Assembly (NCBI GenBank): GCA_050253415.1
Contig: JBFWJC010000001.1
Location: 192,001-256,000 of the forward strand
Direction of reading: 5' to 3'
Origin: Pedobacter sp.
Lineage (GTDB): Bacteria > Desulfobacterota > Desulfuromonadia > Desulfuromonadales > Syntrophotaleaceae
DNA length: 64,000 nt
Positions 27,201-32,294 of this stretch are shown one piece after another. Each line of letters starts with the position of its first letter. Position 1 is the stretch's first letter. The notes under the pieces are model-generated. The model searched no databases, was not told where the DNA came from, and worked only from the letters and a program-made list of their open reading frames with translations. Made by a program: the position numbers and the translations under genes.

Positions 27201-28166
27201 TCATCCCTTAAATAAACGGATAAAATGGGCAAAAATCCCTTGATCGTCATCGGCCACTTCCTGCTCTTTCATAATCTTAAGGGCTTCAAAGGTCGTGCGT
27301 CTTTGATGATAGGGGCGCTCGGCAGTGAGTGCTTCATAAATATCGGCAATACGGCAAATCCGCGCATAAGGATGGATATCCGATCCCATCTTCCCGTGTG
27401 GATAGCCGGTACCATTGTCGCGTTCATGATGCTGCAGAGTAATGGTAAGCGCTTCATCGGTAATGATCCCGTTTTCACTGAGGATGTTGTAACCTTCCTC
27501 AACATGACCATTGACCACCTGGCGTTCTTCCGGCGTCAATTGTCCCGGCTTGTTGATAATCTCAATGGGAATGCGACACTTGCCAAGATCGTGCAGAAAA
27601 AAACCGGTGCCAAGGTTATGCATATCGTGCGAGCGATCCTGGCCGAATAATAATCGCGCCAGTGCCACGCCGAAAATACCGACATTGGTAGAATGAACGT
27701 AGGTGGCATGATCGAAAGCAGTCAATCGTACCAGATATTTGGTTGCTTCTTCATTGTTTACGATGAGATCGACCGTCGGAACGATAACATCGCAGGCCTG
27801 CTTGATAAAGGGACCGCGAGGGTCATCAAAGGCCCGACGCATGACATCGCGACAGGCCGCCTGCACGGCTTTGGCTTTGACAGAAGCCTCAACATTCGGA
27901 TTATGAACAAGGTCGTCCAGCCTGGAGCGTAACATCTGGCTGTAAAAAGCTGCATCCTCGACGCGTACATACAGGTGTTCGGTACCATAAAACTGCAGAC
28001 GATCGATAGCAGGACGGCCTAAAATACCATGTTGAGCGACAAACAGAACGTACTCACCACTCCGGTTACATCGAAACAAATCACACGGAGCTTTTTGGAT
28101 AAAATGAAGGGAGTCGGTACTTACGGAAAATAACTCCTCGCCGCTGATATTTTCGGCCAGATCCAT
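27201..28166 (-). CDS. HD-GYP cyclic-dinucleotide phosphodiesterase
   Basis: TYVHS.NV, HDLGK, HHERDNGTGYP, ADIYEALTAERPY. Confidence 0.93.
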   Translation of the reverse strand: MDLAENISGEELFSVSTDSLHFIQKAPCDLFRCNRSGEYVLFVAQHGILGRPAIDRLQFYGTEHLYVRVEDAAFYSQMLRSRLDDLVHNPNVEASVKAKAVQAACRDVMRRAFDDPRGPFIKQACDVIVPTVDLIVNNEEATKYLVRLTAFDHATYVHSTNVGIFGVALARLLFGQDRSHDMHNLGTGFFLHDLGKCRIPIEIINKPGQLTPEERQVVNGHVEEGYNILSENGIITDEALTITLQHHERDNGTGYPHGKMGSDIHPYARICRIADIYEALTAERPYHQRRTTFEALKIMKEQEVADDDQGIFAHFIRLFKG

Positions 28167-28227: not shown

Positions 28228-29530
28228 AGGACTGCAGATATGCTGTAATGCTGTCAGCGATCTTTTGGAAAATACCGGTAAATTCTTTTTCGTCGCGCTC
28301 CAACAATGTGATGCGGAAACCCTGTTCCTTGGTGCAGAAGGAAGATAAAGGGACCACACAGATACCGGTCGAAGCAAGTAGATAGTACACGAAACGCTTA
28401 TCCAGAGATACCCCCGGTTGATTGACCATACTCTCAACCAGTGTACGAACCTTGGTGTTTTCGATAGGGAGCGTCTGTTGATGTGTAAGCAATTCGGTCT
28501 TGATTACGACACTCATATAAAAAGCACCGTTGGTACGATTGACTTTGATACCAGGGACTTCTTTTAGAACCTCGTAAGCGATATTGGAATTGTTTTCGTA
28601 ACGCGCTCTCCGCTGATCGAGATACGCCGGATATTCCGGGTGTTCAAGGATGCGGGGTATCGCTTTTTGGGGCAATGTAGTGGAACAGACCTCGACCATC
28701 TTGGCGTTCAGGATACTCTGTACATACCGTTTAAAAACAGGATCCCGGTCGGCATTATAGACTTCGATCCAGCCGCAGCGTGCTCCGGGCCAGGGCACTT
28801 CCTTGCTGATGCCACGCAGAGCCATTCCAGGAAGATCGCCGATGAGATCGGATAACGGCTTCGTGGATTGTCCATTATAAACAATATTCAGGTAGACCTC
28901 GTCACAGATCACAAACAGATCGTACTCCCGGGCAATGGCGATCATCTCCCGCAAAATACGCTCCGGATAGACCGACCCGGTCGGATTATCGGGATTGATA
29001 ATCAGTATGCCGGAAATAGCCGGGTTATACTTCACCGACAACCGCAAATCGTCCAGGTCCGGATACCAGTTGTTATCGGGGTCCAAACGGTAGGAAATCG
29101 GCCGCTGACCGGCATGAGCTGCTTCGGCCGATGAGTGGGTGGAATAGGTCGGCGATGGTCCAATAACCCGCGCCTCGCGGCGCAGAAATCCGTAAACCTT
29201 CTGAATGGCGTCGCCAAGGCCGTTGAAAAAGAGAATATCTTCCGCCGTGATTTGCGCCTTGCCGCGCTTATTTGTCCGTTCCGCCAGAAACTCGCGCGTC
29301 TCCAACACTCCCTTGGTCGGGCAATAACCGTAAGTACAATCCTCCATGACCAATTCGGCAACCAGTTGTTTCATCCACTTGGGGATTTTTTCTCCCTTCG
29401 CTACCGGATCACCGATATTTTCCATATTGGTCTTGATACCCATACGCTGGAGAGTCTCGGCAATCTCCACGATCGCCCGAATCTCATAGGTCAACTCACC
29501 TGCGCCTATATGTACGATATCGTTTCTCAT
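28226..29530 (-). CDS. PLP-dependent class I aminotransferase (AlaA-like, probable alanine transaminase)
   Basis: LTYEIR, NIGDP, INPDNPTG, DEVY, ISKEVPWPGARCGW (PLP lysine); substrate specificity is inferred. Confidence 0.85.
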   Translation of the reverse strand: MRNDIVHIGAGELTYEIRAIVEIAETLQRMGIKTNMENIGDPVAKGEKIPKWMKQLVAELVMEDCTYGYCPTKGVLETREFLAERTNKRGKAQITAEDILFFNGLGDAIQKVYGFLRREARVIGPSPTYSTHSSAEAAHAGQRPISYRLDPDNNWYPDLDDLRLSVKYNPAISGILIINPDNPTGSVYPERILREMIAIAREYDLFVICDEVYLNIVYNGQSTKPLSDLIGDLPGMALRGISKEVPWPGARCGWIEVYNADRDPVFKRYVQSILNAKMVEVCSTTLPQKAIPRILEHPEYPAYLDQRRARYENNSNIAYEVLKEVPGIKVNRTNGAFYMSVVIKTELLTHQQTLPIENTKVRTLVESMVNQPGVSLDKRFVYYLLASTGICVVPLSSFCTKEQGFRITLLERDEKEFTGIFQKIADSITAYLQS

Positions 29531-29590
29531 GAATTACCTTAAGCCCCTTCGCCATACCTCGGTTAACTTGAAAAGAAATTAAATCCAAAT

Positions 29591-29623
29591 AAAAAAAGCC
29601 ATGAGCTTCCCCAGCCCATGACC
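29591..29623 (-). terminator. intrinsic terminator (attenuator) in the aminotransferase 5' leader
   Basis: GTCATGGGCT-GGGGA-AGCTCATGGC-TTTTTTT, a 10-bp stem with 2 GU pairs plus U7, 60 nt upstream of the start codon. Confidence 0.85.
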
Positions 29624-29654
29624 TTACTGCACGGTGTCCCTACTTAACGGGATT

Positions 29655-29756
29655 TCAGACAGCAAGACAACGAGCTTCCCTGCGGTTTTTGGCCGCGGTG
29701 CCCATCGCTCGTGCTGCCTCTGCCGGAACCGGCAGTGGATCCCAGTGGTAAGTCAT
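29655..29756 (-). CDS. putative Ala-rich leader peptide MTYHWDPLPVPAEAARAMGTAAKNRREARCLAV (33 aa)
   Basis: AGGAGG RBS 7 nt upstream; 8 of 33 codons are Ala; stop lies about 30 nt before the terminator; absent from the ORF track (<60 aa). Confidence 0.7.
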   Translation of the reverse strand: MTYHWDPLPVPAEAARAMGTAAKNRREARCLAV

Positions 29757-29894
29757 TGGTTTACCTCCTATTACTTCCCGTTGGTTAACACAGCTAAAGA
29801 TAAAAGTCAATCCCCACAGCTTGTAAAGCGGTTGGTTTAAGGATTCATTTCATGCTATAAAGAGTGCTTATTTCTCAAGGAGATAACTACCGAT

Positions 29895-32294
29895 ATGAAC
29901 CTAAGACGTTGGTTAAAAATGGCCCTTCTCAGTTTCCTGGGGCTTTTCCTGGCTGGGTGCCTGGCACTTGGTGCCTCCTATATGATGGTATCGGCCTCAT
30001 TGCCGAAGGTCGACACCTTGGCAGATTATAGCCCCCCTATCGTAACGACCATCTATAGTGACGACGCACAAATTATCAGCGAATTTGCCCAGGAACGCCG
30101 GATTCTTGTCCCCATCGCCAAAATTCCACGTCAGTTGGTGCAAGCTTTCGTTGCCGCTGAAGATTCCAAATTCTTTCAGCATCGCGGCATCGACCTGATA
30201 TCGATTACGCGGGCCGCCATCAAAAATATGCTGGCGGGGGGAATTCGCCAGGGTGGCAGCACGATTACGCAACAGGTAGCTAAAAGTCTGCTTTTGACGC
30301 CTGAGAAAAAATTTTCCCGTAAATTCAAAGAAGCCATTCTTGCCTGGCGAATGGAACAAAAACTTTCCAAAGAGGATATTCTTTTCCTGTATCTGAACCA
30401 GATTTATCTGGGACATGGCGCTTACGGTGTGCAGGCGGCGGCTGAAAATTACTTTGGCAAAAATGTCGATGCGTTAACGCTGGAAGAATGCGCCATACTG
30501 GCGGGCTTGCCCCAGGCCCCAAGCCGCTACTCCCCCTTTCGTCATTATGACAAGGCAAAAAACAGGCAAACCTATGTACTCAGCCGCATGGTCGAAGACG
30601 GTTACATCACTCGTCAACAAGCGGATGAAGCTGGCGCAAAGAAAGTCACCATTCAGCCGCGCAACGATCGACAGATTGCCGGGGCCGCCTATTTTACCGA
30701 ACAGGTTCGCCGCTATCTGGAAGAACAGTATGGCTCTGAAATCATAAATACCGGCGGTCTGAAAGTTTATACGACCATGAATGTGGCCATGCAGCAGGCA
30801 GCACAACTGTCTGTGCAAGCCAACCTTATCCAACACGACCTCCGCTGTGGCTACCGTGGCCCATTGCGTATCCTTGACGCCAAGCAAGAGGCAGCCTTTC
30901 TGTCCAAACAGGATGAAATCTATTCTCAAGCCCCTGCCGAAAAATCTGTTGTCGAAGGAGTTCTGGTCGGAGCCAAGGGCAATAACGCCCAGGTGCGTAT
31001 TGGCCGTTTTACTGGAAATCTGCCCCTCGACAAGGGAGGCCTGGCCAATAAATTGCGTGTGGGCCCCCGGGGACAAACGGTAAAACGCAGTAAAGAGCGT
31101 GCTCTGACATTACCGGTAGGCTCGGTACTACAGGTCAAGATTGAAAATAATTCGCCTGAAGGTCTGATTTTTTCCCTTTACCAGGAACCAGCTGCGCAAG
31201 GCGCCTTTATCGTTCTTAATCCCCATTCGGGGGAAGTCAAAGCGTTGGTGGGCGGTTATGATTTCGCCCAGAGCCAGTTCAATCGCGCCATCCAGGCACG
31301 CCGTCTGCCAGGCTCAGCTTTCAAACCACTTATTTACGCTGCGGCATTGGACAAGGGTTATACGCCCGCGACAATTATGCTGGACACCCCGATTATCTAT
31401 CGTGAACAAGGGGAGGATGGTACCGAAACGGAATGGAAGCCGAAAAACTATGCCGAGAACTTCACCGGAGTCACCACTCTGCGCCAAGCCTTGGCCCATT
31501 CCTACAATGTGGTTACCGTAAAAATGCTGCAGGATATCGGGGTCGGCTATGCCATCAATTATGCAAAAAAACTTGGCATCGAATCCCCCTTGAATCGTGA
31601 TCTGACCCTGGCATTGGGCTCCTCCGCTGTATCGCCGATGGAACTGGCCAGAGCCTATTGCGTCTTTGCCAATGGTGGGGTACTCATCAGACCGGTGTAT
31701 ATCACGCGCGTGGTAGATCGCTATGGAAAAATTCTGGAATCCACGGATCCCGCCGATTTCCCCGCGGGCCCCGGTCCTGGACAGAAGTTGATACAGCAAT
31801 CGCCGCAACGGGTCCTCTCGCCGGAAACCGCTTATCTGGTTACCAATCTGCTCGAAAGCGTGGTGAAGGACGGCACCGGTTATCGGGCCCGGGCTCTACA
31901 GCGCTCTGTGGCATGTAAGACGGGGACCACCAACGATCAGAAAGATGCCTGGTTTGTCGGTTACAGTCCGCGACTGCTGGCCGTTTCCTGGGTGGGATAC
32001 GATCAGGAGCGTTCCCTCGGACCGCGGGAAACCGGATCCAAGGCTGCGGCCCCCGCATGGGTCGAATTCATGCAGAAAACTCTTCAAAATCAACCGAATG
32101 AGGAATTTCCGGTGCCCGATGACATAGAATTCCGCCCCATCGACCCAGCAACCGGTCTGCTGGTTCCGGAAGACAGTCCCAATGTGACCATCGAAGCATT
32201 TGCCCCGGGAACCGCCCCGACCCGTTATGCCCTGGAAAACAAGGAACCTCGCGCCGTCGATTTCTTTGAAATGGATATGGAGGAGATAAACTGA
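29895..32294 (+). CDS. mrcA: penicillin-binding protein 1A
   Basis: AAEDSKF..H.G, QGGSTITQQ, YLNQIYLG, GSAFKP (SxxK), SYN, KTGT. Confidence 0.93.
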   Translation: MNLRRWLKMALLSFLGLFLAGCLALGASYMMVSASLPKVDTLADYSPPIVTTIYSDDAQIISEFAQERRILVPIAKIPRQLVQAFVAAEDSKFFQHRGIDLISITRAAIKNMLAGGIRQGGSTITQQVAKSLLLTPEKKFSRKFKEAILAWRMEQKLSKEDILFLYLNQIYLGHGAYGVQAAAENYFGKNVDALTLEECAILAGLPQAPSRYSPFRHYDKAKNRQTYVLSRMVEDGYITRQQADEAGAKKVTIQPRNDRQIAGAAYFTEQVRRYLEEQYGSEIINTGGLKVYTTMNVAMQQAAQLSVQANLIQHDLRCGYRGPLRILDAKQEAAFLSKQDEIYSQAPAEKSVVEGVLVGAKGNNAQVRIGRFTGNLPLDKGGLANKLRVGPRGQTVKRSKERALTLPVGSVLQVKIENNSPEGLIFSLYQEPAAQGAFIVLNPHSGEVKALVGGYDFAQSQFNRAIQARRLPGSAFKPLIYAAALDKGYTPATIMLDTPIIYREQGEDGTETEWKPKNYAENFTGVTTLRQALAHSYNVVTVKMLQDIGVGYAINYAKKLGIESPLNRDLTLALGSSAVSPMELARAYCVFANGGVLIRPVYITRVVDRYGKILESTDPADFPAGPGPGQKLIQQSPQRVLSPETAYLVTNLLESVVKDGTGYRARALQRSVACKTGTTNDQKDAWFVGYSPRLLAVSWVGYDQERSLGPRETGSKAAAPAWVEFMQKTLQNQPNEEFPVPDDIEFRPIDPATGLLVPEDSPNVTIEAFAPGTAPTRYALENKEPRAVDFFEMDMEEIN

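Follow-up and report, generated by a model that had tools for sequence, protein, structure and literature searches.

In the 64,000-nucleotide (nt) stretch of Pedobacter sp. DNA analyzed here (positions 192,001 to 256,000 of contig JBFWJC010000001.1, assembly GCA_050253415.1; hereafter the window), a gene for an alanine aminotransferase-like enzyme is preceded by a short leader that probably works as a classical ribosome-mediated transcription attenuator tuned to alanine, a reading to which we assign a probability of roughly 0.8. The features expected of such a device at the sequence level, namely an open reading frame upstream of the gene (uORF) with start signals, Ala enrichment, a terminator, an antiterminator, and a suitably placed stop codon, are all present. 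A preliminary description of this DNA had already proposed an alanine leader-peptide attenuator, and comparison of relatives supports that proposal. The anatomy of the leader, its conservation, the alanine bias of its peptide, the covariation of its terminator, and the conserved complementarity of its antiterminator were observed directly; ribosome stalling, switching in vivo, and the substrate of the enzyme are inferred.

In the proposed mechanism, transcription would start from a TTGACT/extended -10 promoter, and a ribosome would translate the leader of 33 codons, in whose central part Ala codons abound (Table 1). When Ala-tRNA is plentiful, the ribosome would reach the TGA codon and cover segment 2 (29676-29656); with segment 2 covered, the terminator (29625-29595, followed by a run of seven U residues, U7) would form, and the polymerase would halt 64 nt ahead of the gene. 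When charged Ala-tRNA is scarce, the ribosome would stall on the Ala codons within codons 12-22, opening the stem between segments 1 and 2 (the 1:2 stem) and freeing segment 2 to pair with 29636-29613, a strand that includes the 5′ arm of the terminator. Because segment 2 captures this arm, the terminator could not form and the gene would be transcribed. In an untranslated leader, segment 1 would hold segment 2 and the terminator would form. The loop would thus act as a homeostat for alanine, because the gene most likely makes alanine from pyruvate.

The first line of evidence is that the leader reads as a coding frame. Coding statistics were compiled from 69 distinct leader peptides comprising 2100 residues. 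In the leader frame, 652 of these residues (31%) are Ala; the two alternative frames of this DNA, interrupted by 90 and 31 stops, would encode 7.9% and 5.2% Ala, respectively. All four Ala codons are in use (GCG 210, GCA 194, GCC 153, GCT 95), and the densest run of 8 codons holds 4-8 Ala in 69/69 leaders. The uORF ranges from 23 to 41 codons and, outside the Ala core, its peptide sequence is poorly conserved. The stop codon lies 18-47 nt (median 25) from the terminator stem, and both this spacing and the mask folds described below place a terminating ribosome over segment 2, not over the terminator. A catabolic, pyrBI-like logic, in which the ribosome physically blocks the terminator, was rejected because the stop codon is at least 18 nt ahead of the stem in all leaders. 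The start signals differ between the two orders of the class that were compared. Within the window's order, most leaders have a Shine-Dalgarno (SD)-like purine run ahead of the uORF start, which lies 48-70 nt from the -35 hexamer (95 nt in one case). In 19/19 leaders of the sister order (L058-L077), 36-39 nt separate the initial base of TTGAC from an ATG that has no SD. Because this ATG sits at the predicted transcription start, the sister-order messages look leaderless, and translation of these attenuators apparently begins at the very 5′ end of the transcript.

The same statistics bear on two other explanations. The first holds that the region is a structured RNA leader, i.e., a riboswitch or a protein target, whose open frame and Ala codons are by-products of GC-rich helices. 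GC-rich stems do yield GCN-rich sequence, nucleotide-level conservation of the core spans two orders, and the fold is more stable than shuffled controls. This explanation is nevertheless highly improbable, given a single open frame with 31% Ala versus 5-8% in the others, Ala codons whose third positions vary freely, a start codon at a fixed promoter distance or with an SD, a stop codon at a fixed distance from the terminator, the lack of any Rfam match at E <= 10, and an RNAalifold consensus with no conserved helix besides the terminator. The second holds that the leader is a general sensor of translation stress, of the whiB7/erm type, in which any slowing of ribosomes, be it through antibiotics or a deficit in any amino acid, gives read-through and the Ala richness is mere bias. 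In mycobacteria, the Ala-rich whiB7 uORF is reported to answer many stresses as well as starvation for most of the amino acids in it (PMC10274678); the leaders studied here contain other residues, including Arg at 11%, and Ala accounts for only 8 of the 33 codons in that of the window. Against this, no residue other than Ala is enriched in every one of the 69 leaders, the Ala codons sit where a stall would free segment 2, and the regulated gene resembles alanine aminotransferases and not a stress regulator, which makes general stress sensing very unlikely.

The second line of evidence is conservation across the class to which the window's genome belongs. An orthologue of the aminotransferase was found in 40 of 41 close relatives (it was not found in G002, a genome that is 90% complete) and in 121/121 sampled genomes of the class. 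Upstream DNA was read at 77 loci in 75 genomes, two of which are represented twice; these genomes derive from 40 close-relative orthologue loci, 15 loci from the class search, and 20 picked across families from 60 same-class genomes. A leader was scored where the final 28 codons of an open frame included at least 5 Ala and the frame ended no more than 60 nt from a hairpin followed by a U tract. The leader, comprising a TTGAC promoter, uORF, and terminator, lies ahead of the orthologue in 70/75 genomes (L035 was placed by hand); the five lacking it by this rule are L036, L046, L050, and L057, which belong to one family and retain the promoter, and L069. In the relatives, TTGAC keeps a constant spacing to the start of the uORF, and within the window's order the -10 region carries a conserved block, CTRTGnTAnCCA. 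The preliminary description had called for just such an alignment of orthologous upstream regions, which bears it out: the Ala-rich uORF is conserved, the terminator is conserved with compensatory changes, and the antiterminator columns remain complementary over two orders.

A covariance model (R1) built from the 69 leaders was searched in 150 genomes of the class. It gave a full-length match at E <= 2e-9 in 125 of them, weak or partial matches only in 19, and no match in 6. Of the 25 genomes that gave no strong match, seven were read; all have the gene, set off from its upstream neighbor by a short spacer, and no leader, which has therefore been lost several times. These losses (L100-L106) include part of one genus whose other members match R1 strongly. 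Two weak full-length matches of the model in other genomes were rejected as leaders, being 3′ ends of coding genes followed by terminators. Outside the class, the orthologue occurs in 24 of 194 sampled genomes of the phylum; 20 of these loci were read, two of which are cut by contig ends, and an Ala-rich uORF with a terminator is present at 5 and absent from 15. Taken by itself, the window yields mixed statistics: a terminator scan did not exceed background (2 sites versus 2.3 expected from shuffles), a sigma-70 consensus scan called no promoter at the leader, and the fold of the 260-nt leader (z -2.89) was equalled in 1 of 200 shuffles. The decisive support beyond chance is the conservation in relatives, as read from their sequences. 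Conservation also informs the view that the uORF is simply the gene of a small Ala-rich protein followed by an ordinary leaky terminator, with no switch. The uORF is indeed conserved and has good translation signals, but the variable length of the peptide and its divergence outside the Ala core, its invariable position immediately before this one gene with its stop codon at the spacing given above, and the conserved antiterminator complementarity render this the least probable of the rival explanations.

The third line of evidence concerns the alternative RNA structures. Among the 69 leaders, the terminator has 10 consensus pairs, 8 of which show compensatory changes. For the antiterminator, 12 column pairs were named from the window and one sister-order sequence. 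These columns are paired in 77.7% of 811 cells, a share that is biased upward because the tested columns were derived from two aligned sequences; the value is 36-50% when the partner is slid by 1-3 columns, and none of 500 shuffles equals the real alignment in pairing or in covariation score. At column pair 137-201, 32 leaders have U-A and 17 have C-G, a switch that tracks the change between CCAUGG and CCGUGG in the terminator. When the antiterminator region is folded as a whole and compared with shuffles, the median z is -1.15, with p <= 0.05 in 23/69 leaders and z -2.88 in the window, and the fold pairs at least 6 bases of the terminator arm with the 3′ end of the uORF in 60/69 leaders. The 1:2 stem is clear in the predicted minimum free energy (MFE) fold of the window, but its class-wide columns gave no covariation signal (see below).

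The position of the ribosome was then modeled by masking. In all 69 leaders, the mRNA was treated as covered up to 12 nt past the A-site codon, and the measure was the stabilization gained by pairing the terminator 5′ arm upstream. The best stall on a core Ala codon gives a median of -10.4 kcal/mol (-13.5 in the window), a ribosome at the stop codon -1.5 kcal/mol (-1.1 in the window), and the absence of a ribosome -3.7 kcal/mol (-5.9 in the window). In these models, masking gives the three-state behavior expected of an attenuator. The MFE structure of the free leader contains the terminator in 66/69 leaders. For the window, a stall at codons 15-22 is predicted to leave a helix between 29676-29656 and 29636-29613, with an antiterminator state of -26.8 kcal/mol; with the ribosome at the stop codon, -5.4 kcal/mol of structure is left, and the completed terminator state amounts to -30.3 kcal/mol.

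A further feature of the Ala core is a conserved CGA codon. The peptide motif A-A-R-A-x-x-A-A-A occurs in 52/69 leaders, and its Arg codon is CGA in 51 of these 52 (29709-29711 in the window). CGA is rare elsewhere: two window genes use it for 0 of 28 and 3 of 48 of their Arg codons, and it makes up 11 of the 182 other Arg codons in the leaders. The block GCA-CGA-GCU-AUC-AGC-GCN-GCG is conserved over two orders. These observations raise the possibility that the motif is a programmed pause or arrest element, acting through the nascent chain or a slow CGA and sensing, for example, free alanine or the state of tRNA-Arg, so that the outcome would not depend solely on how far Ala-tRNA is charged. 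The CGAGC block has no constant pairing partner in the MFE folds of the leaders, as would suit such an element. In the window's genus, however, CGAGC pairs with GCUCG of segment 2, and the 17 leaders without the motif still have Ala runs (e.g., AAAAAAAKAAA in L010), the stop position, and the terminator; we know of no arrest peptide of this sequence. As a replacement for attenuation by alanine, a pause element is very improbable, ranking behind general stress sensing. In a broader proposal, CGA would set the timing of the ribosome relative to RNA polymerase, either as a slow step that is programmed or through the nascent chain. The device would then be a distinct attenuator sub-type, its response to Ala-tRNA being gated by a second input (e.g., the speed at which CGA is decoded, or free alanine acting on the nascent chain), and the sister-order sensor would act on a leaderless transcript. 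We regard this proposal as decidedly doubtful.

The regulated enzyme matches NCBIfam PRK06855 (NF005334) over its full length with 761.5 bits, the cut-off being 443. The next-best family is the archaeal-type alanine aminotransferase, with a score under that family's cut-off, and the nearest solved relatives are Escherichia coli AlaA (4cvq, 1.3e-44) and the alanine aminotransferase of Pyrococcus furiosus (1xi9, 4.1e-43). A search for literature on this enzyme in this bacterial group returned nothing useful. The preliminary description had suggested that the leader, if real, would assign the enzyme to alanine biosynthesis. The leader does argue for a probable role in alanine supply; that the enzyme is the sole route does not follow, as the same genome carries an alanine dehydrogenase gene (G000:C1:689570-690667, strand -; TIGR00518, 536 bits, over the cut-off). 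A search with a hidden Markov model of the leader found no leader-like sequence near the dehydrogenase gene. Similarly, an nhmmer search of the window's genome for further copies returned only the leader itself and one terminator-only match. The latter proved to be a Trp leader (G000:C1:976300-977000, strand -), with a TTGACG promoter whose -35 hexamer is about 37 nt from the ATG, the uORF MLTMSLQHTPTNRLWWRWTASFSGSRACL (containing RLWWRW), and a GC-rich terminator with U7 ahead of a trpS-like gene. The organism thus appears to use leader-peptide logic elsewhere, because a leader with Trp codons and a terminator stands ahead of a trpS-like gene.

Several results weigh against the attenuator reading. 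The window's own leader is modest in Ala, as noted above, and has no run longer than two. Among public RNA data sets, seven runs contained 6-13% of the sequence words sampled from this DNA, all deposited as contigs, a form in which transcript ends are not visible. The leader is gone in several lineages that retain the aminotransferase gene, and alanine supply need not rest on the aminotransferase alone, because the dehydrogenase is present. Judging from its conservation, the nucleotide block with the fixed CGA is a constraint beyond Ala coding. With regard to structure, RNAalifold predicts the terminator as the sole helix of the family; the upward bias in the paired share of the antiterminator columns belongs here as well. 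Pairing the terminator 5′ arm to the final 39 nt of the uORF yields a duplex no better than those of dinucleotide shuffles (median z -0.18; p <= 0.05 in 8/69 leaders), so that, by energy alone, this complementarity is what GC-rich sequence gives; since the duplex energy is not significant, we relied on the column counts and the whole-region folds. The latter are weak in part of the sister order (median z -0.42; p <= 0.05 in 3/19), and the energetic evidence for the antiterminator is accordingly mixed. For the class-wide 1:2 columns, covariation does not exceed that of shuffles, and 262 of 500 shuffles attain the pairing seen. Finally, placing the ribosome on the last Ala codon of the core does not remove the terminator from the full-length MFE structure in 62/69 leaders. 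The choice of structure must therefore be kinetic, as it is in classical attenuators. Taken together, the rival readings are unlikely, and attenuation by alanine is preferred.

The coordinates of the leader and the gene are collected in Table 1. All parts named in the preliminary description were recovered where it had placed them, including the TTGACT hexamer, the AGGAGG ribosome-binding site, the 33-codon frame with 8 Ala codons, and the terminator with U7. The pairings that it named are also those predicted by folding. The ViennaRNA MFE fold of the free leader consists of the 1:2 stem with its inner hairpin plus the terminator; ViennaRNA likewise predicts the 2:3 pairing of AGCUCGUUGUCUU with AAGGUCAUGGGCU; and the shared segment GGGAAGCTC occurs both in segment 2 and in the loop and 3′ arm of the terminator. 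That description had further named a lack of uORF conservation and a match to a known Rfam riboswitch as findings that would tell against it. Neither was encountered, because the uORF, terminator, and antiterminator are conserved and an Rfam scan of 29000-30400 on both strands at E <= 10 gave 0 matches, including to the Trp, His, Leu, Thr, and Phe leader families.

Table 1. Features of the proposed attenuator locus in the window, from promoter to gene.
Feature	Position	Strand	Remarks
-35 hexamer TTGACT	29805..29810	-	Read directly
Extended -10 region TGTGTTAACCA	29782..29792	-	17 nt past the -35 hexamer
Shine-Dalgarno AGGAGG of the leader peptide	29764..29769	-	7 nt 5′ of the ATG
Leader peptide uORF MTYHWDPLPVPAEAARAMGTAAKNRREARCLAV	29655..29756	-	33 codons plus TGA
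Ala codon cluster, codons 12-22	29691..29725	-	Proposed regulatory codons
Segment 1 GGCAGCACGAGCGAUGGGC	29700..29718	-	Pairs with segment 2 in the MFE fold without a ribosome
Inner hairpin CGCGG-CCAAAAA-CCGCAG	29680..29697	-	Tip of the 1:2 stem; from MFE folds
Segment 2, antiterminator 5′ strand	29656..29676	-	Last 7 uORF codons plus the stop codon
Segment 3, antiterminator 3′ strand	29613..29636	-	Takes in the terminator 5′ arm, 29625-29613
Intrinsic terminator and U7	29591..29625	-	13-bp stem and 5-nt loop at 29625-29595; U7 at 29597-29591
Aminotransferase gene, 434 aa	28226..29530	-	Pyridoxal phosphate-dependent, class I; family PRK06855

From the geometry of the promoter, transcription is predicted to start at about 29775, giving a 5′ untranslated region (5′ UTR) of about 19 nt that carries the AGGAGG. 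The uORF runs from the ATG at 29756 to the TGA at 29657-29655, and its Ala codons are codons 12, 14, 15, 17, 21, 22, 28, and 32, six of them within codons 12-22 (GCA GAG GCA GCA CGA GCG ATG GGC ACC GCG GCC). This cluster contains an A-A-R-A-x-x-(x)-A-A core together with the rare CGA at 29711-29709. Ala codons 21-22 form the 5′ arm of the inner hairpin, which may, from the folds, serve as a pause hairpin; an equivalent GCGGCG/CGCCGC hairpin is readable in sister-order sequences. The ATG of the aminotransferase gene (29530) lies 64 nt downstream of the terminator stem. The intergenic region is bounded by this gene and a divergent penicillin-binding-protein-like gene (29895-32294, strand +). On the same strand as the aminotransferase gene, a gene for an HD-GYP/HDIG-domain protein (27201-28166, strand -) begins 59 nt past its stop codon.

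Two variations of the upstream region were seen in relatives. In L004, L008, L085, and L086, about 190-245 nt are inserted between the leader terminator and the gene; the insert of L004 carries a long inverted repeat, and the insert may be a small inserted element. In L036, L046, L050, L052, and L057, a palindrome-like motif, ATACTGTATACAAT, is located about 200-330 nt upstream of the aminotransferase gene; it is conserved in a family mostly without the leader and may be an operator.

The enterobacterial attenuators trpL, hisL, leuL, thrL, ilvL, and pheL have leader peptides enriched in codons for the end product of the pathway and use alternative 1:2, 2:3, and 3:4 pairings. To our knowledge, alanine does not usually figure among the amino acids said to govern their own production through leader-peptide attenuation. 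The leader described here resembles the trpL type in having a short peptide enriched in one amino acid, four predicted pairing segments, a terminator just upstream of a biosynthetic gene, and a stop codon that would let the terminating ribosome mask segment 2. Unlike that type, it would sense alanine, precedes a single aminotransferase gene instead of an operon, has no Rfam leader match, has its Ala codons dispersed through a stretch of about 11 codons that includes a fixed rare CGA, and in the sister order has no 5′ UTR.

The closest published analogue that we found is the whiB7 uORF of mycobacteria. The preliminary description knew of no well-characterized alanine leader-peptide attenuator, a statement that does not hold in view of this alanine-tuned uORF, which PMC10274678 characterizes. 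According to that paper and a later preprint (bioRxiv 10.1101/2025.10.10.681568), the whiB7 uORF, or 'Ala leader', is enriched in Ala and senses alanine deprivation, and stalling on it favors an antiterminator over a Rho-independent terminator; the transcription factor WhiB7 in turn induces the alanine aminotransferase AspC, which feeds back on alanine. WhiB7 also induces drug-resistance genes, and its uORF responds broadly to translation stress (PMC10274678; bioRxiv 10.1101/2025.10.10.681568). Both systems, as described, share an Ala-enriched uORF, a choice between antiterminator and terminator, and a loop that would end in more alanine aminotransferase. The leader described here differs in standing directly on the PRK06855 aminotransferase gene, with no WhiB-family regulator between, and in belonging to a different phylum. 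Additionally, leaderless short ORFs encoding polycysteine are reported to act as cysteine-responsive attenuators in mycobacteria (bioRxiv 10.1101/834739). The sister-order Ala leaders are similar to these ORFs, as described there, in starting at the predicted 5′ end of the transcript and in being enriched in one amino acid; the window's leader is dissimilar in its 5′ UTR of about 19 nt with AGGAGG, and the amino acid and phylum differ. Among the papers covered by our literature search, none described an alanine attenuator standing directly on an aminotransferase gene, and only the indirect whiB7 case was returned.

What is new here is a probable alanine sensor placed directly on an enzyme gene and conserved through a class and some neighboring lineages. 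For the PRK06855 family, whose NCBIfam name is only generic, the leader would assign a physiological function in supplying alanine. Its natural variants, i.e., SD-led and leaderless forms, forms with and without the CGA motif, and leader losses, amount to a ready mutational series. Furthermore, the leader is a compact candidate for an alanine-responsive expression switch in engineering.

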